A stretch of DNA of 64,000 nt, from the IMG/VR virus record IMGVR_UViG_2529292852_000001, positions 32,714 to 96,713 of that record; one strand, written 5' to 3'. Positions 1-35,569 of this stretch are shown piece after piece. A program made the position numbers and the translations under genes. This DNA comes from a virus (taxonomy: Duplodnaviria; Heunggongvirae; Uroviricota; Caudoviricetes). The notes beneath the pieces are model-generated. The model made no database searches, was not told the origin of the DNA, and saw nothing but the letters and a program-made list of their open reading frames with translations. Within the stretch, counting starts at the first letter, position 1, and each line of letters starts with the position of its first letter.

Positions 1-3000
1 TTGATATATGTCTTGTCATCAACTACTTGGCTACCTTCTACCCAATGCTTACTTGTATCTTGCTTGAAGGTAACGATTTGTGGAGTGTTTGTATCAACTG
101 TATGGTTGTTGATACGACCAGAACCACGGTTTGTGAAGGTTGTGCCAGACTTAACGTCATGGTTAACTTCAAAAGTAGCAATTAAGGAAACTTTACCACC
201 TGGAGTTGTAGCTGCATTCTTACGTATAGCTTGGAGTAAGCCACCGAAGTTTATAACCGTATATTGAGATGTTACATCAGTACCATTTTCAAGCACCTTG
301 TAAGATTGTAAAACAGCTTTATCTTTAAAGTCACGATAATCATCAGTAACTGAAACGTAAGATAAAGTCTTAGCTAATTGACTAGGATTAGGTAAGTCCA
401 TATCAACCTTAGTTGTGACAATATCATTGTTGATGTAAGTCTTGCCATCAACAACTTGACTACCTTCAATCCAATGCTTAGTTGGCTTTTGAGTAAATGT
501 TACAATTTGTGCATCAGGAGTTGGTACAGTTTGAGTATTGATTGTACCTGAACCTGAGTTCACAAGTTTAGTTCCTGAAGGTACATTAGGGTTAACCTTA
601 AAGTCAACTACCAATGATACAGTTCCACCGTTAACTGTAGCTGGGTTCTTACGTGTAGCTGTAACAGCGTTATTTGCGTTAGTGATTGCATAATCAGCTG
701 TCGCATTACGTTCGTTTTCATAAACGTTAGCTCCTGTTACAGTTACAAACTTAGCAAATCTACTATAGTTATCAGTTAATGAAACATGAGTTAATTTACC
801 GTTTACAGTTGATGGGCTTGGAACCGTCATATCAACTTTGGCATGAGCTATATCTTCATTAATTTCCATCTTACCATTTACAGTTTGACTACCTTCCTTC
901 CAATTCTTATCGGAAGTTGCTTGATAGACAATGTTGTAGTTGGTGTAGGAAGTGGATAAATATCTTTTTTTAGGTGGTGTCGGTGGAGTATCAGGCATTT
1001 TCATTTGGTACTCCGTATAGTTGGCTTTAAGCGGAGTTGGTGGTTGCAAAGCAACATTAGTACGATGATAGTGGATTGTTGGTGGAGTTGGTGGAGTTGG
1101 TGGAACTAATGTCTTAGCCATACCATATAAATCTGTCGACATTGCCCATTGGTAATAACTATTAACATCGTTTCCTGCACTTGTAAATTCAGTATTATCA
1201 TAGCCAGTTTTTGATGGTAGATAAATTTTTTTACTTTCATCCCAATGGAAATTGCCAGCATTATTGTAGCCATTTTTAGACCATCTAAAAGTTGCACCAT
1301 TTGAAATTTTTGCTACTGCAAAACCAGAGTAATCAGTACCATTAACTCCATAGAATCCGTTACCTAAATCATGTGCTGGAAGTTGATCTTCGTGAGTTTT
1401 GCCATCATCACCTAAAGTAATATTACCTCTAGGGGTATAAATTTTAGCTCCTGATAGAGCTTTAACAGTTTCAGTTACTTCTTTTTGCGTATACCAATCC
1501 CACATAGAAGAATTAAAATGATTTAGTGAGGCTATTCCAAACCAAGCTGTACCGTCCTTAAAGTTAATTAATTTACCAGTATCGTCATAGAAATAGAAAG
1601 TTTCGTCTACTGAATTAGCAAAGGCTGAGAAAGCGTGCATAATTGGATTATTGAAGAATCCAAGAATTACCCTATTACTATTATCTCCGCTGGCTACAAC
1701 ATTGCTAAGAACACCAACAACTTTAGCAATTCTAACCTTAGTGCCATCTAAATTTTTATAGTAAGCACCGTCAGGCATAAGCCATGTAGCTGTGGCAACC
1801 GTTCCACTGTGAGAACCTTGGAAGACTGCACTATATTCTAAAGATTTTGCAAAGTCTTGTTTATAATCATCATCACCACTTGTTTGATTTTGATGTGTCT
1901 CAATAGGTTTAGCATTCCATTGAACTGATAGCTTGGCTCCTTGGCCAAAATTTAAGAATAAATTCTGCCAAATAACTTTAGAATCAATGGAATCTTTTCC
2001 TTGAATACTAGCTAAGTAATCGTTATATTCTTTTTCATATTTAGCCAAGTTATTTTTGTATTCATCTAACTTGTGTTTGTATTGTTGTACTTGAGAATTA
2101 ATACTATCCGCCTGTTGCCTGTTATCACGCTCAATTTCAGCTTTTTTAGAGTTGTAATTATTTACATCAACAGTAACATTACGTGTACCATCATCTATAA
2201 ATTTTACACCATTAGTTGATTTGGCATTTCTTATAGCTGAATCAAGTGAATTACGAGTTGAGTTACTATCTGAGTTAAGATTTTGTGCATCAGTTCTTGC
2301 ACTATTATACCTGTTATTAAGGTCTTTTTGTGCATCTGTAATACTCTTCAAACTTGAAACTTGTTGGTTGTACTTATTATTAACGTCTTGTTTAACTCTA
2401 TTATAAGTAGAGTTGTCTGTAGCCATTACAGTTTGTGTTTGATTTTGAGTAACTTGAACTCCAGCAGCTTTTGCAGCTTGAACTGCAGCTTGCAACTTGT
2501 CTGAATTTTGCTTGTTGACTGTTGTTGAATCTTTACTATTAGCTTGCGAAGTATCGTAGTCAGCCTTAGCATTAGCATATTGATTGTTTAGTTGCTTTTG
2601 TTGTTGAGCTACAGCATTAATCTTATCAGCTTGTTGTTGGTTAGCTTGGCTAACTCGTTGTTGAGCTTGTTGTACTTCTGTTGTATTATGAGCAACAATT
2701 GTTTGACTGTTGTTTTGAGTAACTTGTACCCCTTGCTTTACAGCATTGTTAACAGCATTTTGTACGTCTTGGCTCTTTGGAGATTGAATTGGTACTGAAG
2801 CATTTTGCGTTGTTGAAGAAACACTATTTGTATTACTTTGAGTGCCTACAGTATCAGCACTTGCTTCTTCATGATTAGCCATCATCATCACTGTTCCAGC
2901 AACGGTAAAGCCTAACAATACACTAGCGGTACCAGAAGAAAACTTACGAATACCGTAACGCATATTCTTACGGTTCTGCTTGTTTTCCAACAGCATCATA

Positions 3001-3017
3001 TTGTTTTTTGAAACCAT
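1..3017 (-). CDS. AgI/II-family cell-surface adhesin, N-terminal ~1000 aa (partial, continues past window start): YSIRK-type signal peptide, Gln/Ala-rich coiled-coil A-region, lectin-like V-region, Pro-rich P-region, then repeated Ig-like C-terminal domains
   Basis: Continuous minus-strand frame from ATG at 3017-3015 (RBS AGGAGG at 3021-3030) to the window edge. N-terminus MVSKNNMMLLENKQNRKNMRYGIRKFSSGTASVLLG is a YSIRK-type signal. Coiled-coil QVQQYKHKLDEYKNNLAKYEKEY, and PPTPPTPPTIHYHRTNVALQPPTP. Tandem ~150-aa repeats (KHWIEGSQVVDGKTYINNDI...) visible at 60-130 and 440-540. Not in the ORF track because no stop falls inside the window. Confidence 0.75.
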   Translation of the reverse strand, partial: MVSKNNMMLLENKQNRKNMRYGIRKFSSGTASVLLGFTVAGTVMMMANHEEASADTVGTQSNTNSVSSTTQNASVPIQSPKSQDVQNAVNNAVKQGVQVTQNNSQTIVAHNTTEVQQAQQRVSQANQQQADKINAVAQQQKQLNNQYANAKADYDTSQANSKDSTTVNKQNSDKLQAAVQAAKAAGVQVTQNQTQTVMATDNSTYNRVKQDVNNKYNQQVSSLKSITDAQKDLNNRYNSARTDAQNLNSDSNSTRNSLDSAIRNAKSTNGVKFIDDGTRNVTVDVNNYNSKKAEIERDNRQQADSINSQVQQYKHKLDEYKNNLAKYEKEYNDYLASIQGKDSIDSKVIWQNLFLNFGQGAKLSVQWNAKPIETHQNQTSGDDDYKQDFAKSLEYSAVFQGSHSGTVATATWLMPDGAYYKNLDGTKVRIAKVVGVLSNVVASGDNSNRVILGFFNNPIMHAFSAFANSVDETFYFYDDTGKLINFKDGTAWFGIASLNHFNSSMWDWYTQKEVTETVKALSGAKIYTPRGNITLGDDGKTHEDQLPAHDLGNGFYGVNGTDYSGFAVAKISNGATFRWSKNGYNNAGNFHWDESKKIYLPSKTGYDNTEFTSAGNDVNSYYQWAMSTDLYGMAKTLVPPTPPTPPTIHYHRTNVALQPPTPLKANYTEYQMKMPDTPPTPPKKRYLSTSYTNYNIVYQATSDKNWKEGSQTVNGKMEINEDIAHAKVDMTVPSPSTVNGKLTHVSLTDNYSRFAKFVTVTGANVYENERNATADYAITNANNAVTATRKNPATVNGGTVSLVVDFKVNPNVPSGTKLVNSGSGTINTQTVPTPDAQIVTFTQKPTKHWIEGSQVVDGKTYINNDIVTTKVDMDLPNPSQLAKTLSYVSVTDDYRDFKDKAVLQSYKVLENGTDVTSQYTVINFGGLLQAIRKNAATTPGGKVSLIATFEVNHDVKSGTTFTNRGSGRINNHTVDTNTPQIVTFKQDTSKHWVEGSQVVDDKTYI

Positions 3018-3181
3018 TTAAATTCCTCCTTATAGTAAGTTAATGGTTATATTTACATGATACATTAAAGGTTTATCGAAGTGTTACAAAATATAATTCT
3101 TTGTTTACGAAAATATTTTAAATTTTAGCATTAAATACAGTTATTTTAAGAAGTTAGATTGATAATTTTATGTAGTTTTAA

Positions 3182-4183
3182 AAAGCAATTTACGTTCAAG
3201 TACAACAATACAAGAAGGATTTAGACAACTATAATCAAAAACTCCATCAAGCTGGAAAGAATGTGGTTGATTCACGTTCGCTAATCCAAAAGTTGACTAT
3301 TGAAAGTGAGCCTAATGCTAAGTTGGCTATTAGTAATATTAATAACGTCAATGTAACTCCAGGAGAACATTTGAAATTTAATAATCTTGACGATATGGGG
3401 AATGGTTATTTTGTTGATATAAAAGATAGTAGTAAAGCTGCAAGCTTTGATGCAACCTATACTAATCTACAGAAATTAACTTATAAAGGTAAGAAAATTA
3501 CCAAAGTTATTATGCACTTTTCTACTGCATCTGGATATTGGCATGACCAATACTGGCACGCAGAACTTGCTAATAATATCTACTATGGTTTTCGTTCTTG
3601 GGGCGGAGCTAAAAATATTAGATTTGAATGGTTTTATGAAGACGGATCTAAAGTTAATTTTGAAAATGGAACAGCTTATTTAACTGTTGCTTCGTTAAAT
3701 ACCTATCTTCAAAAAAATCAATGGGGACATGAAAGAACAACTGTTATTTCAGGTGGGAAAGGATTAGCCTTATATGGATCATCTGTATCACTTCATAATG
3801 GCAATGAATTGTATTCGTCTAAAGCTAATAGTATTGATATAAGCGGGAGAGCTAGAGCAACAGATGGGCCAGATTCTAAACCAGATCAAAAATTGATTGA
3901 TAATTTTTTCCCTAATCAAAAAGATATTACTAATACTAACATGCCTTACAAATGGGATACTGCCAGTTCCCCAGATCGCTATTATGGAGCAGGCTTAATC
4001 GCCTTAAATGGTAGTGATTTAGCAGTTATAATTGACGTTAAAAATGATGATAGACCTAATGGTACAGAACCTTGGAACGCTCAATGGGCTAACTTTGGAA
4101 CAATCATTCCAGAGACTCCTAATATTAACAGACCAGAGCTAACAGTCCACTATCATCATACGAACGTTGCTTTGCAACATTAA
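3182..4183 (+). pseudogene. Promoterless adhesin V-region cassette (end of A-region coiled coil + lectin-like V domain + start of P-region). No signal peptide or N-terminus
   Basis: The frame opens right after an in-frame stop at 3179-3181 and the listed ORF starts with GTG. Upstream in-frame residues LQQYKKDLDNYNQKL match the adhesin A-region. Domain motifs are shared with the big adhesin and with 7947-8900 (YYGAGL..NG, HNGN.LYS.KAN, C-terminal TVHYHHTNVALQH). Confidence 0.55.
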
Positions 4184-4337
4184 TAACGCAAATAAACCTT
4201 GATATAACAACACTTTAAATTTTATTACGAGTCACTTTTGGTAAAATAATACTTGAAATTAGCTTTGATTTGCAGCTTTAATGATAAGTAAAATTTACAA
4301 TATAATATAATTTTTTGTTAATGGAAAGGATTTAAAA

Positions 4338-5273
4338 ATGACACAAAGAGTAAGTAAAAAATTAGTACATAAGTATTACAAGGAATGGATTGAATTGTAT
4401 AAGAAAGGAGCTGTTAGACATTCTACCTACCTCAAGTACGAGCTTGCATACCAGCACTTAAAACGACTATGCCCTAACTTGCATATGAACGAATTGAATA
4501 GAAAAAGATATCAACTGTTATTAAACGAGTATGCTGAAGACCATGTTAGAGAAACTACTATGGACTTTCATCATCATCTAAAAGCAGCTTTTGTCGATGC
4601 CTATGAAGATGGTTTAATCAAACAAGACCCTACTAGAAAAGCGATTATCAAAGGTAAACCTAAAGCTGATAAAAAGAAAAAATTCTTGGACTTGTTTGAA
4701 CTTAAGGCTTTAATGAAACAGTTGAATTTGCCTGAAAATGAAATTAACTGGGATTGGTTTATTTATTTGATTAGCAAAACTGGACTAAGATTTGCCGAAG
4801 CTTTGGCTTTAACTCCAAACGACTTTGATTTTAAAGGTAAGCAAATAATTATTAATAAATCTTGGAATTATAAGTTCGGCGGTGGTTTTCAACCTACTAA
4901 AAACGAAAGTTCTAATCGTAAAGTCATCGTTGATCCAAGCTTACTAAGAAACTTCAAAGGACTATTAAAAGGACTGGATCCAAACGCACCTATCTTTGTT
5001 AAAGAAAATCAAAAGATATTTAACTCAACGATTAACAGTCGTTTAAACACACTATGCAAACGAGCTAAAATCTCCCCTATTACTATCCATGGGCTAAGGC
5101 ATACTCATGCGTCCCTATTGCTATTTAGTGGAGTGTCGATTTTAAGCGTATCTAAGCGTTTAGGACATGCAAGTACCCTAACTACTCAAAAGACTTATTT
5201 ACATATTATTCAAGAGCTTGAAAATAAAGATAATAATAAAGTGCTAAAACACCTTAGAGAACTAGAAAATTAA
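4338..5273 (+). CDS. Tyrosine site-specific recombinase / integrase (phage integrase family)
   Basis: C-terminal catalytic region HGLRHTHAS...RLGH...TYLH (R-H-R-Y type motifs). N-terminal SAM-like core-binding region. Confidence 0.85.
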   Translation: MTQRVSKKLVHKYYKEWIELYKKGAVRHSTYLKYELAYQHLKRLCPNLHMNELNRKRYQLLLNEYAEDHVRETTMDFHHHLKAAFVDAYEDGLIKQDPTRKAIIKGKPKADKKKKFLDLFELKALMKQLNLPENEINWDWFIYLISKTGLRFAEALALTPNDFDFKGKQIIINKSWNYKFGGGFQPTKNESSNRKVIVDPSLLRNFKGLLKGLDPNAPIFVKENQKIFNSTINSRLNTLCKRAKISPITIHGLRHTHASLLLFSGVSILSVSKRLGHASTLTTQKTYLHIIQELENKDNNKVLKHLRELEN

Positions 5274-5280
5274 TCTAAGA

Positions 5281-5320
5281 AAAGAGGCTAGGAAAACTAA
5301 TTCCTAACCTCTTTTTTTGT
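5281..5320. terminator. Bidirectional rho-independent terminator between the integrase and the wzx-like gene
   Basis: Hairpin GAGGCTAGGAAAACTAATTCCTAACCTC followed by TTTTTTT, with an A-run on the 5' side. A similar sequence recurs at 8950-8980. Confidence 0.5.
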
Positions 5321-6746
5321 TTCTAATCAGCTTTATCTTATCTAAAATTGTAGGTTTTAAGACTAAAAGTACTAAAATGTAAATTGCTATTCCTATTATC
5401 ACTTCTAGCCCTGTATACATAATTCCTTGTAGGTTCATGTCTTTTGGCTTCCAAAGCAACTCTAGGTAGTAAACAGGAACAAACATTACGATGCCTGCTA
5501 TTAGATATTTAATAAAGTTTTCAAACATCTTCTTTAAATCAACGCTGTATCTAACTACCCATAATTGATAAGCTGTAACAGCTAGTTCTGATAACACTGT
5601 TGCCCAAACGGCTCCATATAAGCCCCATAAATAGATAAATGGGAAGTTAAGTACAATATTAACAACTGCCCCAAATACTACTGATATTGTAAAAGACCTA
5701 ACTTTATTTGTAGGTAAAAGATACTGAGTCCCAACAACGTTGCTCCAACCAATTAGAACAATTACTATTGATTCAATCATTAAAGCTAATCCCACTGGGT
5801 CAAAACCTGGGCCATAAAACATTGTACCTAGATATTTTGATACAGCAGCTAGTCCAAACATCATCGCAATAGCTAAACAGGACACGAAATCAAACGAATT
5901 ATATAACAGTTCATTTACTTTCTTAGTTTCTCCTTTAGCAAAAGCATTAGATACATGAGGTAACATAACTGTTCCAGTTGCTGTTACTAGACCTAAAACA
6001 ACCTTAACAAGAGCGTCAGATTGATTATAAAATCCAGCAGAAGTTGATCCAGCAAAAATACCTAACATGTTTTTGTTTAAGATTAAATAAATTTGTGTCG
6101 CAATTTGTGGAACAAACAATGATACAGTTGGAACAAAGTGCCTTAATGGTTGTAATTCTTTAATACTTATCTTGGTTAATAAAACCCTTAGATGGGGCCA
6201 TAGGGTTAAATTACCACCAATTAAAGACAAAGCTAGAATTACAATGTATACACCTACGTCACTAGCATCTCTAACAAACATAAAAATCATTACTAAAGAC
6301 GCTAGTTTAACCATTGTATTTCTAACAACTGTTCGTTTGAAGTCTTCAATTCCCATATATAGCCAAGAAATATCTATCGCAGCTGCGACAATGTTTAAAG
6401 ATTGTAATATCATGTACCAGTAATACTTACGGTAAACTTGGATAAATAGTGCAAATAAGAAAAAAGCTACAACCGTCATTATTACTTTAAGGATCTGAAT
6501 TTCCCAAAAAGTTTGAGTCATTTTCTTCTTATTTTCACGCACATACGCTATCTCACGATTACCATAATAAGAAATACCAATACCAGCAATTAAAACAAAC
6601 CATTGAATTAAAGAGTTCGTGTAAGAATTAATTCCAACTCCCTCAGGCTTTAAAACACGTCCAATATAAGGGCCTGTTATTAATGGTAAGATCAACGCTA
6701 AGATATTATACCCTGCATTGTAAAGATAATTTTTGATTACCCTCAT
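5304..6746 (-). CDS. Wzx-like oligosaccharide flippase / polysaccharide biosynthesis membrane protein
   Basis: 480-aa polytopic membrane protein. N-terminus MRVIKNYLYNAGYNILALILPLITGPYIGRVL is typical of the Wzx/RfbX (Polysacc_synt) family. Confidence 0.7.
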   Translation of the reverse strand: MRVIKNYLYNAGYNILALILPLITGPYIGRVLKPEGVGINSYTNSLIQWFVLIAGIGISYYGNREIAYVRENKKKMTQTFWEIQILKVIMTVVAFFLFALFIQVYRKYYWYMILQSLNIVAAAIDISWLYMGIEDFKRTVVRNTMVKLASLVMIFMFVRDASDVGVYIVILALSLIGGNLTLWPHLRVLLTKISIKELQPLRHFVPTVSLFVPQIATQIYLILNKNMLGIFAGSTSAGFYNQSDALVKVVLGLVTATGTVMLPHVSNAFAKGETKKVNELLYNSFDFVSCLAIAMMFGLAAVSKYLGTMFYGPGFDPVGLALMIESIVIVLIGWSNVVGTQYLLPTNKVRSFTISVVFGAVVNIVLNFPFIYLWGLYGAVWATVLSELAVTAYQLWVVRYSVDLKKMFENFIKYLIAGIVMFVPVYYLELLWKPKDMNLQGIMYTGLEVIIGIAIYILVLLVLKPTILDKIKLIRNKKRG

Positions 6747-6748
6747 AA

Positions 6749-7864
6749 CTATCCCTCAAATTCATTCTTGACAGTTATTAAAGCAGCTCCTATAACTTGA
6801 TCCATATTGTAGTAACGATATTGACCTAAACGTCCACCAAAGATTACATTTTCAGTTTCTTTACTGGCCAGTTCTTGATATCGCTTGTAAAGGCTGTTGT
6901 TTTTACTGTCATTCACTGGATAATAAGGTTCATCGCCACGTTTCCAATCAGCTGGATATTCACGAGTGATAACAGTTTTACCTTTTTCACCTTTACCAAA
7001 TTCAAAATGTTTATGTTCAATTACTCTAGTATAAGGTGTTTCAGCGTCTGTATAGTTCACCACAGCATTACCTTGATGATTATCTTCATCTAACACTTCT
7101 GTTTCAAAGCGTAAACTTCTATATTCTAATTCTCCAAGTTTGTAATCGAAGAATTGATCAATCATACCTGTGAAGATAACTTTATCGTATTCTTTTAGAT
7201 ATTCTTCTTTACGGTCGAAGAAATCTACCCCTGTTTCTACAGTGATATTATCATGATCTAACATTTTTTCGACAATTTGTGTATAACCGCCGATTGGAAT
7301 ACCTTGATATGTATCATTGAAATAGTTGTTATCATAAGTTAAACGTACTGGTAAACGACGAATAATAAAAGCTGGTAATTCTGTAGCTTTACGTCCCCAC
7401 TGTTTTTCTGTATAACCCTTGATTAATTTTTCATAAATGTCTGTTCCAATTAATGAAATAGCTTGTTCTTCAAGGTTTTCTGGTTTCTTACCATTAAGAA
7501 CTGCACGTTGTTCTTCAATTTTAGCCATAGCTTCTTTAGGAGTTGCAACTCCCCAAAGTTTATTAAATGTGTTCATGTTAAAAGGCAAGTTATAAATTTC
7601 ACCATTATAATTAGCTACTGGACTATTAGTATAACGATTAAATTCAGCAAATTGGTTTACATATTCCCAAATTTCTTTCTTAGAAGTATGAAAGATATGT
7701 GCGCCAAATTGATGAACTTGAATACCGTGTACTTCTTTTGTATAAATATTTCCAGCAACGTGTTCTCTTTTTTCAATAACTTTTACTTTATGTCCTCTTT
7801 GAGCAGCTTCGTGTGCAAATACTGCACCAAAAAGACCTGCACCTACTACTAAATAATTTGTCAC
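6749..7864 (-). CDS. glf: UDP-galactopyranose mutase
   Basis: FAD-binding N-terminus VVGAGLFGAVFAHEAAQRGHKVKVIEKR..AGN.YT, HIFHT, and a conserved C-terminus GRLGQYRYYNMDQVI. Length 371 aa. Confidence 0.9.
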   Translation of the reverse strand: MTNYLVVGAGLFGAVFAHEAAQRGHKVKVIEKREHVAGNIYTKEVHGIQVHQFGAHIFHTSKKEIWEYVNQFAEFNRYTNSPVANYNGEIYNLPFNMNTFNKLWGVATPKEAMAKIEEQRAVLNGKKPENLEEQAISLIGTDIYEKLIKGYTEKQWGRKATELPAFIIRRLPVRLTYDNNYFNDTYQGIPIGGYTQIVEKMLDHDNITVETGVDFFDRKEEYLKEYDKVIFTGMIDQFFDYKLGELEYRSLRFETEVLDEDNHQGNAVVNYTDAETPYTRVIEHKHFEFGKGEKGKTVITREYPADWKRGDEPYYPVNDSKNNSLYKRYQELASKETENVIFGGRLGQYRYYNMDQVIGAALITVKNEFEG

Positions 7865-7946
7865 TTTATAGTTCCTCCAAATTTTATATATTACTTTTAC
7901 TAACAGAACGTATTAATCTTATCATTAAAATCTCTTAATTGGTAGC

Positions 7947-8900
7947 TTATAACAGTTTTAGCAAAGCAACATTCGTACGATGATAGTGGATTGTTGGTGG
8001 AATAATGCCACTGCTTGACTTAGGAATAGTCGTTGATATTGTTGCCCACGTTCCAGGGTTTACAAATACAGCTCTCTTAGTTCCATAAGTAACGTTTAAG
8101 CCGTTTCCGTTAACTTTAAAAATTCCTGCTCCATAATAAGCATGTGGATCATCTAAACCTTTATCCCAACTATTTGTACCCCATGGATAATTTGATGTTA
8201 CATCAGATGAATATGTGGTTTGCCAATTATCACCAATCCTTGATCCTATATCATTAGCTTTATCTGAATAAAGAGTATTTCCATTATGAATGGTAACACT
8301 AGAATCTTTAAAGCCATAAACCCTACCTGAACTGTTTAATTTAACTGATTCATACCGACCTTTTCCTGAATTTAAAGAACCAATTGTAATCCATGAATTA
8401 TCTGTATTATCAAAGCTAATCAAATGATTATTTTCGTCATAGAATTTGTAATTTACTGTAATTTTGGAAGATTGCCAATACCAAAAGCCATAGTAAGGAT
8501 TTGAATATATTGCAAATGAAATACCGTAAGGAGAAAGATTCTCTTGAGTTACATTAGAAAAAGTGGCAATGATTTTTGAAATTTTTTTGCCTCTATAGCT
8601 ACTTCTGCTAAGGTTCGTATACGTAACTTCAATAATATCTCCTGTTAGGTTACCTCTGTTATGAGCATCTACTATAACAGTATGTTTATAATTATCGCGA
8701 CTTACACCTCCTTCAAACCATTTATCGTAAGAAGCATCAACATCTTTTGATAACAATTTATAACTAAGTTCAGCATCTTTTTCACTACCCAACATTAATT
8801 CTTGCTTGATTAAGTCAGGATTAATTTGATCTGAGTTAAGATTTTTTTGATATGCGTCTAGCTTTTGCTTGTATTGTTGTACTTGAGTGTTATTTAGCCT
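7947..8900 (-). pseudogene. Second promoterless adhesin V-region cassette (A-region end + V domain + P-region start), same orientation as the expressed adhesin
   Basis: In-frame upstream residues QVQQYKQKLDAYQKNLNSDQINPDL match the adhesin A-region, and stops occur immediately 5' (about 8903). The C-terminus PPTIHYHRTNVALLKLL matches the P-region start of the big adhesin. Confidence 0.55.
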
Positions 8901-9075
8901 TAACTTACACTAATTAGCATACCTTAACTCTAGCAAATAACTCAACTATTTTATTAACTTTCACGATAAAAAAAGAGCTAGGATTTCTCCTAACTCTTGT
9001 CATCATCACAGGTTTTTCCGTTGCCTGCCAACCGACCAGCCCATACGTCTGGCATTGTTATAAGTTTATCACACT

Positions 9076-9861
9076 CTAATTACCTTGTCTAAGTGTATAA
9101 GCGTAATAGAACATGTTGTACTTGTTTAGTATTGTTTTATCCATCGAAACGTTAAAGTAATCTTTACGGTGAAATACCTTAGAGGCATAGTATTTAAGTG
9201 TAGTTTCGTCAATGTCTTGAATAAACTCTTTTAGCTCATCTTCACTAAGTGGTTTGATATTGTTCACTCTACTAGCGTAAATAACACATTTATCAAAGCT
9301 GTGAGTAGTTCTACTATCGTGAATAAAATCTTTTTTACTTTTACGAAATTCTTGACTAGCTTTTTCGCTCATGCCAATTAGCCTTAAAAAGACCATATCG
9401 CTAATGCTTTCATCACGCTTTAAAAATTCGTTATAAATATACTTAGACTTAGCATAAACTAAAGCGTTGCCTATAATGCGATTACCTTTAATAATATCGT
9501 ACATATCATAATAATCTGCCTTTTCGTGTAACTGCATCGCAATCTCTAAAATATCATCAAGTCCACTAGCTTGCTTTAAGAGTTTTTGATAAAGTTCACC
9601 CTTGTCTTTAATAATATCGTCAATTAAAACGTAAAGTTCGCCTATTTTAGGATAGTTATCAAGCTTATTTTTATAGCCTGGATAAATTGTGCTATTCCAT
9701 GATTTCAAAAACTCAGGAGAAGGTTCTGACGTACCATGTAGATAACTGATAACTTTTTTCTTATTACGATCGACAATATTAAGACTCTTAATAAATATTC
9801 TATCGTCAATTCTAGGATCTAATTTACATAGTTCTTGATATTGTTCTTGCACCGTTGTCAT
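9076..9861 (-). CDS. Hypothetical protein
   Basis: 261-aa ORF co-oriented and abutting 9862-10593. No recognisable motif. Confidence 0.4.
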   Translation of the reverse strand: MTTVQEQYQELCKLDPRIDDRIFIKSLNIVDRNKKKVISYLHGTSEPSPEFLKSWNSTIYPGYKNKLDNYPKIGELYVLIDDIIKDKGELYQKLLKQASGLDDILEIAMQLHEKADYYDMYDIIKGNRIIGNALVYAKSKYIYNEFLKRDESISDMVFLRLIGMSEKASQEFRKSKKDFIHDSRTTHSFDKCVIYASRVNNIKPLSEDELKEFIQDIDETTLKYYASKVFHRKDYFNVSMDKTILNKYNMFYYAYTLRQGN

Positions 9862-10593
9862 TTAAATCAACCCCATGTAAGTTGTATCTTGATCTTTACG
9901 CTTAGAAAAATCAAATGAATAGTTAGGTAATAATCTGTAAAGTGTATTAGCGACTTCGTTATAAGTACGAGCATCTTTACAGATTTTTTCTGGGTGTTCA
10001 AACAAATCTACGTCAAAATTTAACTTTTTAGCAAGATCCGTATTAGATAAAACGTTAAATCCATCGCCTAATCTGGAGCGGAAAATAAGATCACGAATTT
10101 GGCGATAGTTTTGGATCGTATTAGTAAAGTTATAATCTAACTTATATGACGGAACTAAGTCTAAGCGTAGCAATTCGTATACATCAATGGCCGCAAGAGT
10201 TGGTTTACTTTCAAGATTACCATTGAATATTTTAGATATAGCACCATCACTTAAATCTGCTAATACTGCTAGTTGAGATCTGGAAATATTTTGTTTATAC
10301 AAGCTATATTCAGAATAGGCATCAACTATATCCTGAACGATTAAATCACTGTAATCAGGTAAAGACTCATCAAGAATTGTCAATGCGTCAAATATAACAT
10401 CGTATGTTCTAGGATCATCAGAATATTTATCAAATCTAATGAATGACCCCATTGCTGACGTTGAATAGTAATTGAAAAAGCCAAAGATTGTGTTGAAATA
10501 CTTTACGGTTATTCTAGGGTCTTTTTTAGATACTTTTTCAAATAGTTTAGGAACTTGTTTAATTCTTTCTGGACTTGCCATATTAATTACCAC
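9862..10593 (-). CDS. Hypothetical protein with a possible HTH segment
   Basis: 243-aa ORF. ISRSQLAVLADLSDGAISKI resembles an XRE-type helix-turn-helix. Confidence 0.4.
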   Translation of the reverse strand: MVINMASPERIKQVPKLFEKVSKKDPRITVKYFNTIFGFFNYYSTSAMGSFIRFDKYSDDPRTYDVIFDALTILDESLPDYSDLIVQDIVDAYSEYSLYKQNISRSQLAVLADLSDGAISKIFNGNLESKPTLAAIDVYELLRLDLVPSYKLDYNFTNTIQNYRQIRDLIFRSRLGDGFNVLSNTDLAKKLNFDVDLFEHPEKICKDARTYNEVANTLYRLLPNYSFDFSKRKDQDTTYMGLI

Positions 10594-10740
10594 CTTTATA
10601 TGTTGATTTTATACATTAAAAAGAAATTCAATATGAATTACTCATATTACACCATCAGTTTAAAGAAAAAATAAGTTCAAATCAAATCAAAATTAATCGT
10701 TATTTGCGATTTCAAGCGTTTTCTTTACTTTTTGTTACAT

Positions 10741-10775
10741 AAAAAAAGCCCCATAAACGTTGATTTACAGGGCTT
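10741..10775. terminator. Bidirectional terminator hairpin downstream of the FtsK-like gene
   Basis: AGCCCCATAAACGTTGATTTACAGGGCT flanked by an A7 run (5') and TTTAAAG (3'). Confidence 0.45.
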
Positions 10776-10859
10776 TTAAAGTAAAAGCAAATATTTTTAT
10801 TAACTTTTTGTTACAAGGGTCATTTTGACCCTCATTAAGAGTTGATATTTTGTTAATTT

Positions 10860-13712
10860 TTAAATTTGACCTTTATCGTTGCCTTCAGTCACATCTTTAA
10901 CCTTATCTCTTGAAGTTGCGACAATACTTCCAGTAGATCTATGTGCATCTACGTTCTCAGCATCTTTTTGAGCCTTATACCACTCTTCAAGTTCTTTTTT
11001 GAAAGAATTGTAAGGTGAATTTGATTTACGCATAAGCTTAAATGTATTTTCCCCTTTACTTTTATCTTTATCTTCACCTATATCTTGCTTTTTATCTTCG
11101 CTATCATCTTCAGGTTTATCAAACTTAGGTATATCTTTATTTGTATTATTAACAAGCAGTTCTTCACGGTGATTGTATAAGTAGAACCAGTACTTTTTAT
11201 CTAAAGCTTTAAGTCGATCCAAAGTCCAATCTGGTGTTGGTTTAGGGTCTGGAATATCAACGTCTTCTGTATCTATAACGTCAACGTTGCTACCATCGCC
11301 ATCAGAAACTGTGGTATTCATTTCTGCTAAAATTTCTTCACGACTGATTACATATTCGTTTCTACCAAACTTCTTAGTCAAACTATCATTTAAAGCGTTC
11401 ATCGTATCTTCAGAAAGATATGGTGAGTTACCATGTTCAAAGTTAGAAACACCATTCATGATAGAGTAGAACTCACCAGGTTGTGAGATGAAGTGAGCTT
11501 TAATACCAGTGTCTGGTAAAGCAATGTCAGATTCGATTGCTTCACTAAGTCCTAACGATACACGACCTGTGATGTTAGCGGTAATGTTACCTCTAATCTT
11601 ATCTTTACGTGCTGTTTGGTTAGCGAATAACAAACGTATACCTGTAGAACGAGCCATCTTAGCTAAGTATTCAAACCTATCAGCTGTTCCTAACTTACTC
11701 ATTTCAGATGGGTTTAGATCGTTATCTTTATCCATGATTGCAGAAAATTCGTCAACGATTACCAAAAGTTCTGGCATCTTTTGATCTGGGAATTTTTTAT
11801 TAAATTCGGCCAACTTTTGAACCGAGTTTTCTTTAAAGATAGCAATTCTTCTTCTAACTTCGTTTTCAAGATGTTTGATTAAAGCTCTGGCATACTCAAT
11901 ATCTCCTGAAGCATCAGCTGGTTGAGCATAAACATATGGATTAGGGTGTCCTTTATCGTTACGCATAAATTCAAAGGAGTTACCTTTACCATCAATGAAT
12001 ACCATTTTAACTTGGCTAGGATCAACAGCTGCCATAACCGAATAAACAATTGTCATGATTGTAACTGTCTTACCTGTACCAGTCTTACCAAACAAGATAG
12101 CGTGAGGATTGCTGTCACCTAGTTCAAAGTAGATAGGGTTGCCTAATTCGTCAACACCTAACATACCTGAGATAAGAGTTGGTACACCCTTCTTACGAGC
12201 TAAGATCATATCGCTAAATGAAGCTGGCACGTTTACACCATTATCAATCGAAAGTTTTAAAATACCAGCAGATAACGTAATAATTGGTGTTGCTTTAATA
12301 CGTAGGTAGTTAGCAATTTGTTTTTGAATACGATCAAAGTTATCAGGTAAGTTTGGATCTTGTGGTAATACGTATTCGTAAATAGCGTTGTTACCGCCAA
12401 CTTCAACTTTCTTGAATTGACCGTTAATCTTAACAGCGTTTAAAGCCATAGTTACATCAGGAATACGAGCTTTGGCTTTACGCATAGCAATTGTACGTTG
12501 AGTTTTTGCATCATTTTTAGTTTTAGGATCAATAGCAGGTGGAATTACGCTTAGGTCAAGATTTTGTTGAACCTTGAAGTTAGCTACTTCTGCACTTTCA
12601 TCAATCGCATATCTATATTCAGATAATTTAACAAAACGCTTGTAAATAGCATAAGGTGTTAAATGACCGATATAATTAAAGATTGAACCAATTTTTTCAA
12701 AATATGAAATTAAGTAACCTTTGCCACCTCGACTAGTGCTATTGTCAGGATTAAATGGATTAGTAAAAATATCCTTCCATGCGCCTAGTTGTTCATCAGC
12801 CTCATAACTAACCGAAGAATTAAAAGTATAACCTTTTAGCTTAGAGTTATATGTAGGGTCTGATGGAAAGAAGATTGAATTACCAGAAATACGATCGCCT
12901 AAACCTTTAAGCGCATTTTCAATTGAACGGTCTGTTTCTGTTTCTCTTGACTGTCTAATTAAGATTTTAGCTTCTCTAATCCCATTAGCGGTAGTTTTGA
13001 CCTTAATCTTAGTTCTTCTCATCGCTACAGCCGTAGCTTTTTTAGTTTGCGTAGCAGCAGTTCCTCCTGCCCCATCTTTAAACGGTTGACCGTTGTCTTG
13101 GTAGCCTTGAACAGCAGCTTCATAACTGTCGTTTAGGTTTTCTTTGATTTTAGCTCTTAGTTTACCAGCTAGAATAAAGTCTTCAATCGGTGTTTGTCTG
13201 CCAACTAAATACAAGAATATTCTAGGGAATGTTAAGTAAGCTGGAACAATTACATTAGCTGTTCGTGGGAATGACACTCTCCAAACTAAAGCAATACTGT
13301 CGATGATTGCTCCAAATAAGAAAGTAACCACAAATGCTTGCCAGTAATACCAACGATAATCACCAATTTTAGCGTTGATCCAGTGAGAGATTAGAAGATA
13401 CTTTTGATGAATTGTTTGCATAATTGGTGATTGCATAAGCATTTGCCAAACAGCATTTATTCTACTTGCTATCATGACCCAGATTGTCTGTTTTAATAAC
13501 CATGGGTGAACCGTCCAATGCCAGAAAGCCCAAATTACAGCTAAAAGTCCAATTACAACTGCCCAAGTAATAACCTTGCTCCAAGCAATATCCAAGTTAG
13601 CTTTAATCCAAGCTCTAAAACTAAATTCAATCAACCAAAACAAGATTGCAAAGGCAATACCATAAGGCAAGACGTAGTGTAGGATAAACCAAATAATTGA
13701 TTCAAAATTCAC
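10860..13712 (-). CDS. FtsK/SpoIIIE-family DNA translocase, membrane-anchored (conjugative coupling-protein-like, TcpA-type)
   Basis: N-terminal TM helices. Walker A GKTGTGKTVTIMT, Walker B LLVIVDEFSAIM. A single FtsK-type ATPase domain, 950 aa. Confidence 0.8.
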   Translation of the reverse strand: MNFESIIWFILHYVLPYGIAFAILFWLIEFSFRAWIKANLDIAWSKVITWAVVIGLLAVIWAFWHWTVHPWLLKQTIWVMIASRINAVWQMLMQSPIMQTIHQKYLLISHWINAKIGDYRWYYWQAFVVTFLFGAIIDSIALVWRVSFPRTANVIVPAYLTFPRIFLYLVGRQTPIEDFILAGKLRAKIKENLNDSYEAAVQGYQDNGQPFKDGAGGTAATQTKKATAVAMRRTKIKVKTTANGIREAKILIRQSRETETDRSIENALKGLGDRISGNSIFFPSDPTYNSKLKGYTFNSSVSYEADEQLGAWKDIFTNPFNPDNSTSRGGKGYLISYFEKIGSIFNYIGHLTPYAIYKRFVKLSEYRYAIDESAEVANFKVQQNLDLSVIPPAIDPKTKNDAKTQRTIAMRKAKARIPDVTMALNAVKINGQFKKVEVGGNNAIYEYVLPQDPNLPDNFDRIQKQIANYLRIKATPIITLSAGILKLSIDNGVNVPASFSDMILARKKGVPTLISGMLGVDELGNPIYFELGDSNPHAILFGKTGTGKTVTIMTIVYSVMAAVDPSQVKMVFIDGKGNSFEFMRNDKGHPNPYVYAQPADASGDIEYARALIKHLENEVRRRIAIFKENSVQKLAEFNKKFPDQKMPELLVIVDEFSAIMDKDNDLNPSEMSKLGTADRFEYLAKMARSTGIRLLFANQTARKDKIRGNITANITGRVSLGLSEAIESDIALPDTGIKAHFISQPGEFYSIMNGVSNFEHGNSPYLSEDTMNALNDSLTKKFGRNEYVISREEILAEMNTTVSDGDGSNVDVIDTEDVDIPDPKPTPDWTLDRLKALDKKYWFYLYNHREELLVNNTNKDIPKFDKPEDDSEDKKQDIGEDKDKSKGENTFKLMRKSNSPYNSFKKELEEWYKAQKDAENVDAHRSTGSIVATSRDKVKDVTEGNDKGQI

Positions 13713-14948: not shown

Positions 14949-15773
14949 TTAGTACCAACCATGGCTTTGCCAGAATTGTTGTGCGCCAGTCCATGAACCA
15001 TAACGACTAGCTACATACTGGTCGGCTACACGTTCTTGATTAGCTGGTGAGTAATCTCCATTTAAATATGAAGATGAAAGTTGGTACTTACCGATGTATT
15101 GACCGTTTCTTGCGTTGTAGTTATTGCTAGATTCACGTTGAGCAATCCACGCTTTAGCGGCTTGGTCTGAGCCTGATACATTAGATGTATAGCCAGTGTT
15201 AGCACTAGCTTGCACATTATTAGAACTTTGCTTAGCTTGCCAGTTGTACAAGTTTTGACGATTTTGAATTTGTTGTTGTGTTTGTTGCACTTGCTGATAT
15301 GGTGTTTGAGCTTGTGCTTGTGTAGAACTTTGTGCGTTGGCTTGTGCATCGCTTTGTGCTTGCACTTGAGTTTGCGTGTTATCTTGGCTTTGACCTTTTT
15401 CTAAATTCAAGACCTGTCCTACTAGAATTAAATTGCTAGTTAAGTTATTAGCTGACTTTAATTCATCAACACTTAAACCATTAGCTTGGGCAATCTTCCA
15501 AAGTGAGTCCCCTGCCTTAACTGTGTAAGTCTTAGCACTGGTTTGAACATTACCGTCAACTTTTAGTTCTTGTCCTGGATAAATTTTATTTACATCTTGT
15601 AAGTTATTGTTAATCTTTAAGCTCTCAACCGTTGTTCCAGCCTTATTTGCAATTTGTGATAAAGTATCTCCACTTTTGACTGTAACTTGATCGGCATTAG
15701 CCTTAGAACTTACTGAAATAGCAGCACCTACCATAGCACTAGACATTAATAAACCTTTATAAATATTCTTCAT
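14949..15773 (-). CDS. Secreted protein with 2 LysM domains and an Apf-like (aggregation-promoting factor-type) C-terminal domain. Candidate transfer-associated cell-wall hydrolase
   Basis: Signal peptide. Two LysM repeats (TVKSGDTLSQIA..., TVKAGDSLWKIA...), a Q-rich linker, and a C-terminus AWIAQRESSNNYNARNGQYIGKYQLSSSYL...QYVASRYGSWTGAQQFWQSHGWY. Confidence 0.6.
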   Translation of the reverse strand: MKNIYKGLLMSSAMVGAAISVSSKANADQVTVKSGDTLSQIANKAGTTVESLKINNNLQDVNKIYPGQELKVDGNVQTSAKTYTVKAGDSLWKIAQANGLSVDELKSANNLTSNLILVGQVLNLEKGQSQDNTQTQVQAQSDAQANAQSSTQAQAQTPYQQVQQTQQQIQNRQNLYNWQAKQSSNNVQASANTGYTSNVSGSDQAAKAWIAQRESSNNYNARNGQYIGKYQLSSSYLNGDYSPANQERVADQYVASRYGSWTGAQQFWQSHGWY

Positions 15774-16198: not shown

Positions 16199-16327
16199 GT
16201 TTTATCCTTCTTTCTTGTTGTTATATTTTTGTTGATAAAGAAAATTAAAATACGACTCTTTATTACAAATGGACGTCAAGCCTACGACTTTAGTCGTGGG
16301 ATATAAGCCCTAGTTTGCCTAAACAAA

Positions 16328-17704
16328 CTAAATATTTTCCATTTTCGTTTCTAGCATTCCATTTACATGATATAAGCTAACAATGTTTTTAACTGTGCTA
16401 GATTTACCACTTTGAAGAATAACGCTTTTCCCTCTACTAATAACACTTTTAACTCTTTCAATTCTGTTAGTTTTGGTATTTAGCACAACATCATGTGGTC
16501 TTAATTGGTAGTGATTTCGTCTAATCGAAACACGCCCCTTTTTAACTTTTTCTTTTCTAAATTGTCTTAAATTGGTGTAATTAAGCTCTCTTGAACGTCT
16601 AGTTCTACCTGAACTTAACTCTTTACCAGCTTTTTGCTTACCATCACGGCTATCAATATATTTAGCGTCATAAAATAATTGCAACACTCGGTTATTATTC
16701 CTTAACTTTTGTCTTGAATAAATATTATTTGTTCTAAAAGTTGTATCAGTCCCACCAGCGATCACAAAAGCGTCATTTAAATGTGATTTTTCAATCTCAT
16801 ACTTTTGTCTTAAGTTAGCGGTTAGATAACCTTGGGTTGTCGTATATTCATCAAAATAATCACTTAATCTTGCTGCTAAAATACTCATAAAGTAAGCACC
16901 ACGATAATCAAGCATCTTTTGTCGATTTTCTCTCAACTTAGCTAAGATACCGTTATTATGGTTAGCTTGATTATGATTAATATCTGACAGTAAAACTAAA
17001 TTATCTGGCTGATTAGATCCACCATCTTTTCTTTGAACTAAGTGATGGACTCTTAATTGACTAGCTGGATATTGTTTACCATCTAAAGCATCACGATAAT
17101 TATCTCTAGCTAGGAGATAATCTTTAATCGTCTTAAAACCATACATTTTGCCTTTTTGATATTGCCACCCTTTAATGTTTGGGTTTAATAATTTTTGATT
17201 GTCGAATGGTGTAACTTCAACGACTAAATTAGTAATTGGCAAAAACGTATATAAGCGTTTGATTTCTTTAATTGTAAAATCTAATCTATGTTGAATACTA
17301 GGAGCTAACCAACCGTCTTTGTGTCTGCGATTATCAAATCTAGCCTTACGGTATCTTAAACGATTTCTTCTAGTTCGTCTTGATTCACGTCTACTAGTAA
17401 TCCTATCTTTTTCTGATTTTCTTAGACTTTCTGACACATAATATTCACGGTTGTTACCCACAACTGATAAACCTAAGTGGAAACCAGCGTCTACTCCTAG
17501 TGTTAAATCTTGAGTATTTGTAGTAACAGGTCTAACAAATTGGATAGTATTTCTACTATTTCCGTACCATTTTGCTTGACCTGTTTTTAACCAACGGCGA
17601 ACCATACCTAATCTTGAAGTTGGCATGAGTGGTGTACCGTTGGAGTCTACTACATAAATATAATCAACTTTTTTAATTTTTGACATCATGTCAACTCCTT
17701 TCAA
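16328..17704 (-). CDS. iscB: IscB RNA-guided nuclease (PLMP domain, RuvC-I, Arg-rich bridge helix, HNH, RuvC-III). True start probably MMSKIKK at ~17689
   Basis: PLMP motif (NGTPLMPTSR), RuvC-I GVDAGFHLGLSVV, bridge RRESRRTRRNRLRYRKARFDNRR, HNH LRVHHLVQRKDGGSNQPDNLVLLSDINHNQ. The RBS AAAGGAG lies inside the annotated 5' end. Confidence 0.8.
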   Translation of the reverse strand: MKGVDMMSKIKKVDYIYVVDSNGTPLMPTSRLGMVRRWLKTGQAKWYGNSRNTIQFVRPVTTNTQDLTLGVDAGFHLGLSVVGNNREYYVSESLRKSEKDRITSRRESRRTRRNRLRYRKARFDNRRHKDGWLAPSIQHRLDFTIKEIKRLYTFLPITNLVVEVTPFDNQKLLNPNIKGWQYQKGKMYGFKTIKDYLLARDNYRDALDGKQYPASQLRVHHLVQRKDGGSNQPDNLVLLSDINHNQANHNNGILAKLRENRQKMLDYRGAYFMSILAARLSDYFDEYTTTQGYLTANLRQKYEIEKSHLNDAFVIAGGTDTTFRTNNIYSRQKLRNNNRVLQLFYDAKYIDSRDGKQKAGKELSSGRTRRSRELNYTNLRQFRKEKVKKGRVSIRRNHYQLRPHDVVLNTKTNRIERVKSVISRGKSVILQSGKSSTVKNIVSLYHVNGMLETKMENI

Positions 17705-17949
17705 TCATAATTCGCACCTAACATAAAGTTGGTACGTGTGTACCCTTCGCCAATGTTATAGGTTGGTTTAATGTTAATTACACTAAGCCTGAACTCAGCT
17801 TTGTTTAATAATCAACCGTAGTGTTTGAAACTAGGGTGGCATTCCAAAGTACCTATTTATTCAACCCTAACGTAGTTATTTAAAACTTAGGCTAATCAAC
17901 CAGCTTGTATTTCTACAAGCCACCTACCTTAGTCGGCGGTTCTGTTGAC
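17705..17949 (-). ncRNA. Putative IscB omega-RNA scaffold (upstream of iscB, guide expected at the LE junction)
   Basis: ~240 nt immediately 5' of iscB, near-identical to 36947-37194 in copy 2. IscB omega-RNAs are known to be encoded at this position. Confidence 0.5.
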
Positions 17950-29370: not shown

Positions 29371-29436
29371 ATAACGATGGCAGGAATCGAACCTGCATCT
29401 GTTACCTTGCCTTACCGTTAGGCTACATCGCTACTT
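29371..29436 (-). ncRNA. tRNA-like element with acceptor stem, D-arm (GCCTAACGGTAAGGC) and T-arm but no anticodon arm. Overlaps the tnpB stop codon
   Basis: Minus strand AGCGATGTAGCCTAACGGTAAGGCAAGGTAACAGATGCAGGTTCGATTCCTGCCATCGTT. Only 13 nt lie between the D- and T-arms. Confidence 0.5.
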
Positions 29437-30873: not shown

Positions 30874-30879
30874 TTTTCC

Positions 30880-31073
30880 AACTCCTTTTTTGAGTTAACA
30901 TGTAATTTACGCATAGTCTTTTGGCTGACTACACCTAACGCTAACCCTTCCACAATGGACGTCTTTATTTGTGCCATCAGCACTTTTTGGGAACTCTTCA
31001 ACAAAGAAATGCAATTAGCAACACTTTGTTTGCGAAGATGTTTACCAAACTGTGAAGAGCAAGCACCCTCCAA
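30880..31073 (-). ncRNA. Decayed scaffold copy (5' leader of tnpB) without an adjoining repeat
   Basis: Minus strand GGAGGGTGCTTGCTCTTCACAGTTTGGTAAACATCTT...GAAGAGTTCCCAAAAAGTGCTGATGGCACAAATAAAG aligns with the scaffold 5' and 3' blocks. Confidence 0.45.
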
Positions 31074-35474: not shown

Positions 35475-35569
35475 AATTCATCAACCCCTTTTGATTAATT
35501 TTTATTACAAACGGACGTAAAACCTATGATTTTAGTCGTGGAATATAAGCTCTAGTTTGCCTAAACAAA

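Follow-up and report, generated by a model that had tools for sequence, protein, structure and literature searches.

A candidate shufflon exchanging the lectin-like domain of an AgI/II-like adhesin on an L. salivarius-type plasmid

At one end of a 64,000-nt stretch of DNA (positions 32,714 to 96,713 of the IMG/VR record IMGVR_UViG_2529292852_000001, hereafter the window), a gene for a large surface adhesin is accompanied by two fragments corresponding to its middle part, which lie on either side of a tyrosine recombinase gene. Does this arrangement serve the programmed exchange of the binding domain of the adhesin, or is it the remnant of an old insertion? A first-pass annotation had favoured a recombinase- or gene-conversion-driven swapping. 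Shufflon-like cassette switching stands, with exact isomers found in near-clonal plasmids, whereas gene conversion does not, since these isomers correspond to reciprocal inversions. Specifically, we consider it very likely that the window carries a multiple-inversion system (shufflon) that swaps the lectin-like V domain of an AgI/II-like adhesin encoded on the plasmid and anchored in the cell wall, and slightly more likely still that the locus family undergoes site-specific cassette inversion. The window belongs to an L. salivarius-type plasmid: 22 of the 23 plasmid records with nucleotide matches are L. salivarius megaplasmids, and RepA_N, ParA and Alp7A genes are also present.

The expression-site adhesin gene (1..3017, minus strand) starts at 3017 and continues as an uninterrupted open reading frame (ORF) to the window edge; its 5' 1005 codons fall in the window, while the C-terminus lies beyond the window start. 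The encoded protein consists, in order, of a YSIRK signal peptide, an A-like region (PF18652, Adhesin_P1_N), a middle domain of about 350 aa termed V3, a short Pro-rich PPTPP linker and repeated C-terminal domains. Its relatives are genes of 7.5-9 kb, annotated as 'SspB-related isopeptide-forming adhesin' or as LPXTG proteins. The Antigen I/II (AgI/II) layout of A, V and P regions, as initially proposed, holds for the A-like region (PF18652) and the V domain (PF08363), but the P region is reduced to the short linker, and the NCBIfam AgI/II equivalog NF033804 reached 22.7-60.2 bits against a cut-off of 1500 bits. Judged by these matches, the protein is best described as AgI/II-like (SspB-related), not as a member of the Antigen I/II family (NF033804).

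The nature of the middle domain was addressed through its predicted structure, since a phmmer comparison of the adhesin with PDB sequences returned no match and a fold search was used instead. The AlphaFold model of V3 is of moderate quality (pLDDT 60, pTM 0.64), which supports the assignment to a family and gives no information on the ligand. Its 19 significant PDB matches (TM 0.33-0.43) are all GbpC, the V domains of SspB, AgI/II or Pas, or the PrgB adhesin domain. Because of these fold matches, and of PF08363 in the homologues of V3, the exchanged module is, as modelled, a lectin-like ligand-binding head.

The two fragments align end to end with the middle domain of the adhesin, and both match PF08363. 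Silent cassette 1 (V1; 3182..4183, plus strand; E=2e-13) is inverted with respect to the adhesin gene, while silent cassette 2 (V2; 7947..8900, minus strand; E=1e-16) has the orientation of the adhesin gene and is therefore inverted with respect to cassette 1. Cassette 1 lacks both a start codon and a signal peptide and is enclosed by stop codons at 3179-3181 and 4181-4183. In both cassettes stops occur 5-8 codons upstream of the left-hand conserved core described below, as had been noticed at the outset, and directly after the right-hand one. We call the cassettes promoterless because start codons and signal peptides are missing, stops lie upstream and a terminator is present, given that the promoter scan was uninformative overall (36 sites versus 29 expected). 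The V domains are far more divergent than first thought: instead of 40-60% identity, V1, V2 and V3 are 24-29% identical to each other at the protein level, and a sensitive self-BLAST detected no nucleotide similarity among the three outside the cores. This lower identity makes the conserved cores all the more striking.

The left-hand core, IR-L, is the 18-nt sequence TCAAGTACAACAATACAA, which encodes QVQQYK at the A/V junction of the adhesin. The 64-kb window contains three copies and no more, against 0.03 expected by chance: in the expression site (2077..2094, minus strand), in cassette 1 (3196..3213, plus strand) and in cassette 2 (8869..8886, minus strand), all three being exact. The right-hand core, IR-R, encodes HYH(R/H)TNVAL at the V/P junction and likewise has exactly three copies in the window (28-41 nt, 89-98% identical; 0.00 expected by chance). 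These are located at 1046..1086 in the expression site (minus strand, encoding (T)IHYHRTNVAL; 1046-1073 in its shorter extent), at 4141..4178 in cassette 1 (plus strand; 4148-4178 in its shorter extent) and at 7961..8001 in cassette 2 (minus strand). Both cores are thus present in three copies, in both orientations, in frame and inside coding sequence. The first-pass annotation had recognised the 18-nt core in three exact copies, placing them 1-3 nt off, as well as the second block, whose first copy it had put about 11 nt away (1057-1095).

Together the cores divide the expression site into three segments. The constant C-terminal part of the adhesin (the D_C context; 1..1045, minus strand) is kept whichever V domain is joined to it, and it is 90.6% identical in nucleotides to the related locus of ZSA5 (L001, NZ_CP123973) up to the IR-R boundary. 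The second segment (1047..2093, minus strand) is the V3 cassette, currently expressed, which encodes the GbpC/AgI-II V-type lectin domain. The third is a putatively invertible 'driver' (2095..3195, minus strand), comprising the coding sequence for signal peptide and A-like region, the start codon at 3017 and the upstream promoter region, in which a -10/-35-like site was found at 3149-3122. The driver segment is 92.7% identical to that of ZSA5, the homology stopping exactly at 3213.

The cores are conserved as DNA and not as peptide alone. Codons are identical in all three copies at 11 of the 14 degenerate core columns, compared with 11 of the 30 other columns with an invariant amino acid, which points to selection on the core DNA itself, beyond the encoded peptide. 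In addition, IR-L is uniform within each locus and different between lineages: the variants CAAGTACAA, CAGATACAA and CAGGTGCAA start with CAAGTA-, CAGATA- and CAGGTG-, respectively, and continue with the common sequence CAACAATACAA. Such uniformity within a locus is the concerted pattern expected for sites that must pair.

The same locus was then compared in related genomes. The near-clonal set consists of six plasmids from L. salivarius badger isolates (S35, S39, S40, S91, S96 and S103), whose genomes are complete assemblies obtained from Nanopore and Illumina reads (PMC10483869). These plasmids have the same three-slot layout, in the order adhesin(-), repA, cassette(-), cassette(+), recombinase(+), and are 99.5-100% identical over 28.9 kb, the flanking proteins of the loci all being identical by accession. 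Nevertheless, the locus is found in four configurations at 0-2 single-nucleotide differences per 29 kb in most plasmid pairs; the rate of rearrangement is therefore far above that of point mutation.

Taking S35 as reference, S39 is colinear with it (99.8% identical) and has the same configuration. S40 differs from S35 by an exact inversion of 2089 nt (100% identity) with IR-R copies at its ends, while S96 differs by an exact inversion of 5572 nt with IR-L copies at its ends and zero mismatches elsewhere. As a result of the latter the adhesin of S96 is split into a 768-aa protein with signal peptide, N-terminus and V domain, which ends after IR-R, and a promoterless gene for V domain, C-terminus and LPXTG motif; the homologue of the driver segment stands inverted in this plasmid. 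In S103 and S91, the expressed V domain (981 nt) is swapped reciprocally with the silent V domain proximal to the recombinase (1026 nt), the intervening 5572 nt being unchanged, a swap that results from an inversion at IR-L combined with one at IR-R. When every cassette was tabulated, the three V types were found in free combination with the contexts on either side, three upstream and three downstream, which is what crossovers at both cores should produce. Judged from these alignments, the isomers are reciprocal inversions rather than products of gene conversion.

The repeats at the badger junctions measure 25 nt (IR-L) and 28 nt (IR-R). Polymorphism located 5' of the last 19 nt of IR-R moves with the V domain, which confines the IR-R crossover to CACACGAACGTTGAGCTAC (at most 19 nt).

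Three small badger plasmids, L013 (NZ_CP114547, 59.7 kb; 4741-7891), CP114503 and CP114504, contain the same repA/cassette module with a recombinase only 54% identical, and their V3 cassette is followed by the C-terminal context of the adhesin. They look like the product of a deletion or fusion at the cores, possibly a plasmid fission by recombination between direct repeats.

Reassortment is also seen closer to the window. The other relatives compared were, besides ZSA5, plasmid pMP118 of UCC118 (L003, NC_007930), CICC 23174, the metagenome contig L017, the Logan contig L022 and the short-read or metagenome contigs L018, L019 and L020. The recombinase of ZSA5 is 95% identical to that of the window and is associated with an identical IR-L core and the same three slots; these are filled by V4, V4 and V5, and the 88-93% nucleotide homology to the window breaks exactly at the cores. 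The L017 recombinase is 100% identical in amino acids, and it has a V2-like cassette at its side where the window has V1. L022 shares the right-hand backbone and the glf junction of the window, with V3 (92% nucleotide identity) in the cassette 2 position (slot 2), where the window has V2. V2 of the window, in turn, shares 96% nucleotide identity with the V domain that is attached to the anchor part in CICC 23174. Overall, eight V types were counted in ten loci. The comparison with related genomes, which the first-pass annotation had put forward as a check, shows different V types in the same slots, with the homology breaking at the cores.

A split arrangement is found in pMP118 of UCC118, where the N-terminus reads towards the recombinase. 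In this record (coordinates 123560-128918) the anchor part has no N-terminus and a 595-aa ORF for N-terminus and V domain faces the recombinase, the two being annotated as separate or hypothetical genes. This split adhesin is probably a shufflon state rather than a pair of pseudogenes.

These comparisons bear on the simpler explanation considered at the start, namely that the locus is static, an integrase-borne island having settled beside the adhesin gene with the fragments as decaying remnants of paralogues and no programmed switching. The absence of start codons and signal peptides from the cassettes would fit such a history, and so would the presence of a foreign wzx-glf gene pair inside the block. 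The cassettes, however, have their full length, stay in frame without any internal stop, and are reciprocally permuted instead of decayed; their boundaries coincide with the conserved cores in every lineage; between the near-clonal plasmids, the only differences are exact reciprocal inversions or swaps located at these cores; and the layout recurs in at least five plasmid backgrounds. We regard a static locus as extremely improbable and retain the shufflon as the explanation of the arrangement.

Additional searches extended the sampling of the family. An exact look-up of the window recombinase led only to metagenome contigs of 1.2-1.4 kb, which are nonetheless informative on slot content. A metagenome scan found no N-term/IR-L junction, whereas the scan for IR-R gave one contig, bearing a ninth V type. 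Among 185,579 species-representative genomes, a V-domain profile, keyed on HYH(H/R)TN and blind to other junctions, matched the L. salivarius type strain only. The type-strain scaffold consists of nothing but two head-to-head cassettes (1926 nt), and the draft contigs L018, L019 and L020 stop at IR-R copies or a few bases away; loci of this kind will be systematically fragmented in draft assemblies.

The candidate enzyme is encoded by a tyrosine recombinase gene (putative invertase; 4338..5273, plus strand; PF00589, E=2.4e-21, above the cut-off) that lies between the two silent cassettes, at a distance of 160 nt from an IR-R. The HGLRHTH, LGH and TYLH motifs (HxxR, H and Y) are kept across 12 homologues. 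Outside L. salivarius, the closest homologues are 57-61% identical; those of L. ultunensis, L. intestinalis and Listeria innocua lie between inverted hsdS genes of type I restriction-modification (R-M) systems and share the cassette(+)/recombinase(+)/cassette(-) order. Further copies, about 70% identical to the window recombinase, adjoin a half-hsdS gene and a methylase on other L. salivarius megaplasmids, and such R-M-linked copies reach 82% identity to other adhesin-linked ones. Adhesin-linked and R-M-linked recombinases interleave in a neighbour-joining tree, a result that supports placing the enzyme in a clade whose other members, by gene context, are hsdS invertases. No hsdS, hsdM or hsdR gene was found among the window ORFs of at least 120 aa, and since an hsdS or hsdM gene is missing there, the adhesin locus is the only plausible substrate of the enzyme in the window. 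The serine-resolvase fragment at 48694-49056 was also considered as an invertase and rejected, as it is 120 aa long, fused to an IS607-type TnpB context and 44 kb away.

With the enzyme in view, a second alternative can be weighed, in which the rearrangements are real and arise from general, RecA-dependent homologous recombination or gene conversion at short coding blocks, the recombinase being irrelevant, for example an R-M inverton leftover or an integrase. Three observations fit this mechanism: the cores are conserved coding motifs, conversion would account for the perfect inverted V duplicate of 898 nt in ZSA5, and adjacency and homology, rather than biochemistry, tie the recombinase to the locus. 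The junction repeats, on the other hand, are merely 17-28 nt, very short for RecA-dependent exchange; the exchanges are reciprocal and keep all three V domains; and four configurations in plasmids this similar imply a rate far above background. In addition, every related locus, despite differing backbones, has a recombinase of the hsdS-invertase clade directly beside an IR-R, and in the window this recombinase has no hsdS partner. General recombination is therefore, in our opinion, a highly unlikely source of the isomers, which we attribute to site-specific inversion.

According to this model, the adjacent recombinase would act on copies of the same core that face each other in inverted orientation and bring about their reciprocal, site-specific inversion, starting from the present state of the window, which would be ON with V3. 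Recombination between the IR-L copies at 2077-2094 and 3196-3213 would flip the 1.1-kb segment with promoter and N-terminus onto V1, giving a 636-aa unanchored protein (N-terminus and V1) and leaving V3 and the C-terminus promoterless, that is, a split or OFF state. Recombination between the IR-R copies at 1046-1086 and 4141-4178 would exchange the partner of the anchor part, and the two events together would generate a full-length adhesin with V1, free of stops over the 982 codons that fall in the window. Cassette 2, being in direct orientation to the adhesin gene, would first have to invert against cassette 1, through IR-L (3196/8869) or IR-R (4141/7961); this inversion would also flip the recombinase-wzx-glf block and place V2 in the inverted slot, from which it could then be loaded. 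The predicted chimeras of the N- and C-terminal parts with V1 and with V2 are both open and in frame. A clonal population could hence contain cells with three different binding heads on the adhesin, plus split states.

The block between the recombinase and cassette 2 contains the genes for a wzx flippase (5304-6746, minus strand; PF01943) and for glf, a UDP-galactopyranose mutase (6749-7864, minus strand; PF03275), so that the initial description of a recombinase between the cassettes and beside these two genes is confirmed by all three domain matches. ZSA5 and L019 lack the wzx-glf pair, whereas L017, L018 and L022 have it. The segment missing from the relatives corresponds to 5278-7960, exactly between the recombinase stop codon and the IR-R of cassette 2, and the pair sits within the segment that recombination between the IR-R copies of cassettes 1 and 2 would invert. 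It is not accompanied by a glycosyltransferase, and its nearest plasmid match is from Bacillus velezensis (74%). Its expression might depend on orientation.

Two hairpins had been described as near-identical terminators bracketing the inserted block. Both are real, terminator-like (z = -5.6 to -5.9) and share their stem sequence, but their likeness falls short of near-identity, and they do not mark the limits of the insertion as mapped above. The first, at 5279..5319 between recombinase and wzx, resembles a bidirectional terminator (dG -20 to -22 kcal/mol, z about -5.8); the second, at 8973..8998 upstream of cassette 2 (minus strand), is a strong intrinsic-terminator-like hairpin insulating cassette 2 from upstream genes. 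Beyond it, at 9076-10593, lie two genes for conserved hypothetical proteins, one of 261 aa and one of 243 aa with a weak HTH_3 match. They are always found with slot 2 in the lineage of the window (ZSA5, L022) and could be regulators of the locus.

Several points weigh against a switching locus as we describe it. The direct isomers come from the badger plasmids, whose recombinase is about 70% identical to that of the window and whose core variants are different, whereas the evidence from the lineage of the window is reassortment between non-clonal relatives, so that heterogeneity at the exact locus is presumed from relatives. Only adjacency and homology suggest the window recombinase as the catalyst of inversion. 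By eye, no motif common to IR-L and IR-R was found, and no obvious shared motif or dyad symmetry marks a binding site. In ZSA5, the expressed V domain and the recombinase-proximal cassette (10046-10943 and 12025-12922) form the 898-nt perfect inverted duplicate mentioned above, which could indicate that gene conversion or RecA-type events occur too, or could be an assembly artefact (a consensus of mixed isomers). Finally, the IR-R copies of the window, CGTACTAAT, CATACGAAC and CGTACGAAT, differ at 1-3 positions; these mismatches fall inside the 19-nt crossover region mapped in the badger plasmids and could slow exchange with the expression site.

The last point is central to a third alternative, in which the family is an active shufflon but the copy in the window is frozen or crippled by its diverged IR-R sites, the module being perhaps disturbed by the wzx-glf insertion. 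These 1-3 mismatches contrast with the identical cores of ZSA5 and the badger plasmids, and the insertion places 2.7 kb between recombinase and cassette 2. Yet the IR-L copies show no mismatch, the ORF of the recombinase is unbroken and its catalytic motifs are conserved, and the badger IR-R copies, also 1 nt apart, still recombine. Moreover, L017 and L022 carry the same wzx-glf insertion and hold different V domains in their slots, from which it follows that reassortment went on after the insertion. We therefore deem a frozen copy unlikely, and the shufflon in the window presumably still switches.

What would such switching achieve? With heads only about 25% identical, a change in binding specificity would be its most natural consequence; given this divergence, antigenic variation is only one possible role, and a change in ligand specificity is at least as likely. 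Immune evasion is possible as well. The neighbours of the adhesin vary by plasmid and include SEC10/PgrA surface-exclusion proteins, an FtsK/SpoIIIE ATPase, an aggregation-promoting factor and a plasmid sortase, and related megaplasmids add relaxase and ArdC genes. Both a plasmid sortase (50952-51695) and an aggregation-promoting factor (14949-15773; LysM; NF052398, 233 bits) are encoded in the window, on the same replicon as the variable adhesin. The PrgB-like fold, together with these neighbours, makes a role in aggregation or mating possible. More speculatively, and with considerable doubt on our part, the locus may represent a Gram-positive counterpart of the R64 PilV shufflon, a PrgB-like aggregation or mating adhesin whose lectin head is switched by an R-M-derived recombinase, allowing one plasmid lineage to attach to different recipient or host surfaces. 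For a mating adhesin, the split state would be an OFF state or the release of a soluble lectin. The link to conjugation is drawn from neighbour annotations (SEC10/PgrA, FtsK/SpoIIIE, relaxase); a Pfam search of the putative transfer genes of a badger plasmid gave almost nothing and no direct evidence of a type IV secretion system.

The window also contains several further elements. A 1.7-kb element encoding a 458-aa RRXRR-domain (IscB-like) protein is present in two copies (16260-17943 and 35501-37194; 89% nucleotide identity), and the precise absence of the first from the otherwise colinear L022 is the behaviour of a mobile insertion. ORFs of the TnpB type (OrfB_IS605 plus Cas12f-like TNB) were identified at three places, 26075-27328, 29418-31073 and 49049-50392, the last preceded by the 120-aa serine-resolvase fragment (48694-49056) in an IS607-like arrangement. 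A cluster of repeats with 77-91% identity extends across 27.4-32.6 kb.

If the shufflon model is correct, a widely used probiotic species diversifies, inside a single clone, the head by which a major surface adhesin binds, and this would bear on how strains and batches differ in adhesion, aggregation and host range. It would also mean that an invertase of the R-M type can acquire a target in an unrelated gene family, and that the many short ORFs annotated as 'GbpC/Spa domain-containing protein' or 'hypothetical' on L. salivarius megaplasmids, like the split adhesin 'pseudogenes' of pMP118, are shufflon states and not signs of decay. The compact sites of 17-28 bp, with their recombinase, would in that case be of interest as a tool for in-frame domain swapping.

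Programmed inversions that rewrite coding sequences are well documented in hsdS genes, PilV and phage tail fibres, as well as in surface proteins of mycoplasma and Bacteroides. The adhesins to which the window protein is related, namely AgI/II, GbpC and PrgB (S. mutans SpaP and GbpC, S. gordonii SspB, E. faecalis PrgB), are to our knowledge not among the proteins that vary by DNA inversion. The resemblance to them lies in the PF18652 A-like region, the PF08363 V domains and the modelled fold, and in the isopeptide-type C-terminal repeats and LPXTG anchor of the relatives of the window adhesin, which differs in having a short PPTPP linker as P region and many C-terminal repeats. No published inversion system on an LPXTG or AgI/II-type adhesin, on the present locus or in lactobacilli was found in openly searchable full text; this covers the inverton surveys Milman 2023, Chanin 2023, Huang 2020 and Sekulovic 2018, a 2025 Microbiome paper and the badger genome paper (PMC10483869).

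In cell-surface architecture, the inversion systems of Mycoplasma and Ureaplasma (M. pulmonis vsa/HvsR, M. agalactiae vpma/Xer1, Ureaplasma mba; PMC3047005) are comparable in that one expression site, with promoter and signal-peptide-encoding 5' end, is coupled by inversion to silent 3' cassettes, chimeric surface proteins arise and a tyrosine recombinase is adjacent. Their lipoproteins, in contrast, replace the whole mature part and have no constant C-terminal anchor to be re-joined, so that one crossover suffices. The R64/IncI1 shufflon, with its Rci recombinase, sfx sites and PilV tip adhesin (PMC9881135), resembles the adhesin locus in being plasmid-borne and in having a tyrosine recombinase, with multiple inversions that swap the receptor-binding part of an adhesin among cassettes and produce a population of mixed specificities. 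It differs in operating on a Gram-negative type IV pilus, whereas the target here is not PilV, and in swapping C-terminal ends through one class of 19-bp sfx sites, where the adhesin locus exchanges an internal domain through two site classes.

The closest relationship is with the hsdS invertons, exemplified by SpnIII/cod of S. pneumoniae with PsrA/CreX and by Efa4125I of E. faecalis with EfiA (Huang et al. 2020, PMC7672463), in which single invertases act on several dissimilar 15-60-bp repeat pairs within coding sequence (PMC7672463), a precedent that matches the two-core design of the adhesin locus. The recombinase is homologous, as indicated by the gene context of its homologues, the cassette(+)/recombinase(+)/cassette(-) order is the same, and short inverted-repeat pairs in coding sequence allow a domain-wise exchange into in-frame chimeras. 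The differences are that the adhesin is a secreted, wall-anchored protein of the GbpC type while hsdS encodes a DNA-specificity subunit, and that in the adhesin locus the promoter and 5' end are themselves invertible, single inversions resulting in a split, unanchored state. Moreover, IR-L and IR-R are unrelated to the hsdS repeats of the related invertons L010-L012, with which no common motif was found. In conclusion, the locus follows the logic of hsdS invertons and shufflons with a homologous recombinase, but applies it to a new target family and to the exchange of an internal domain.

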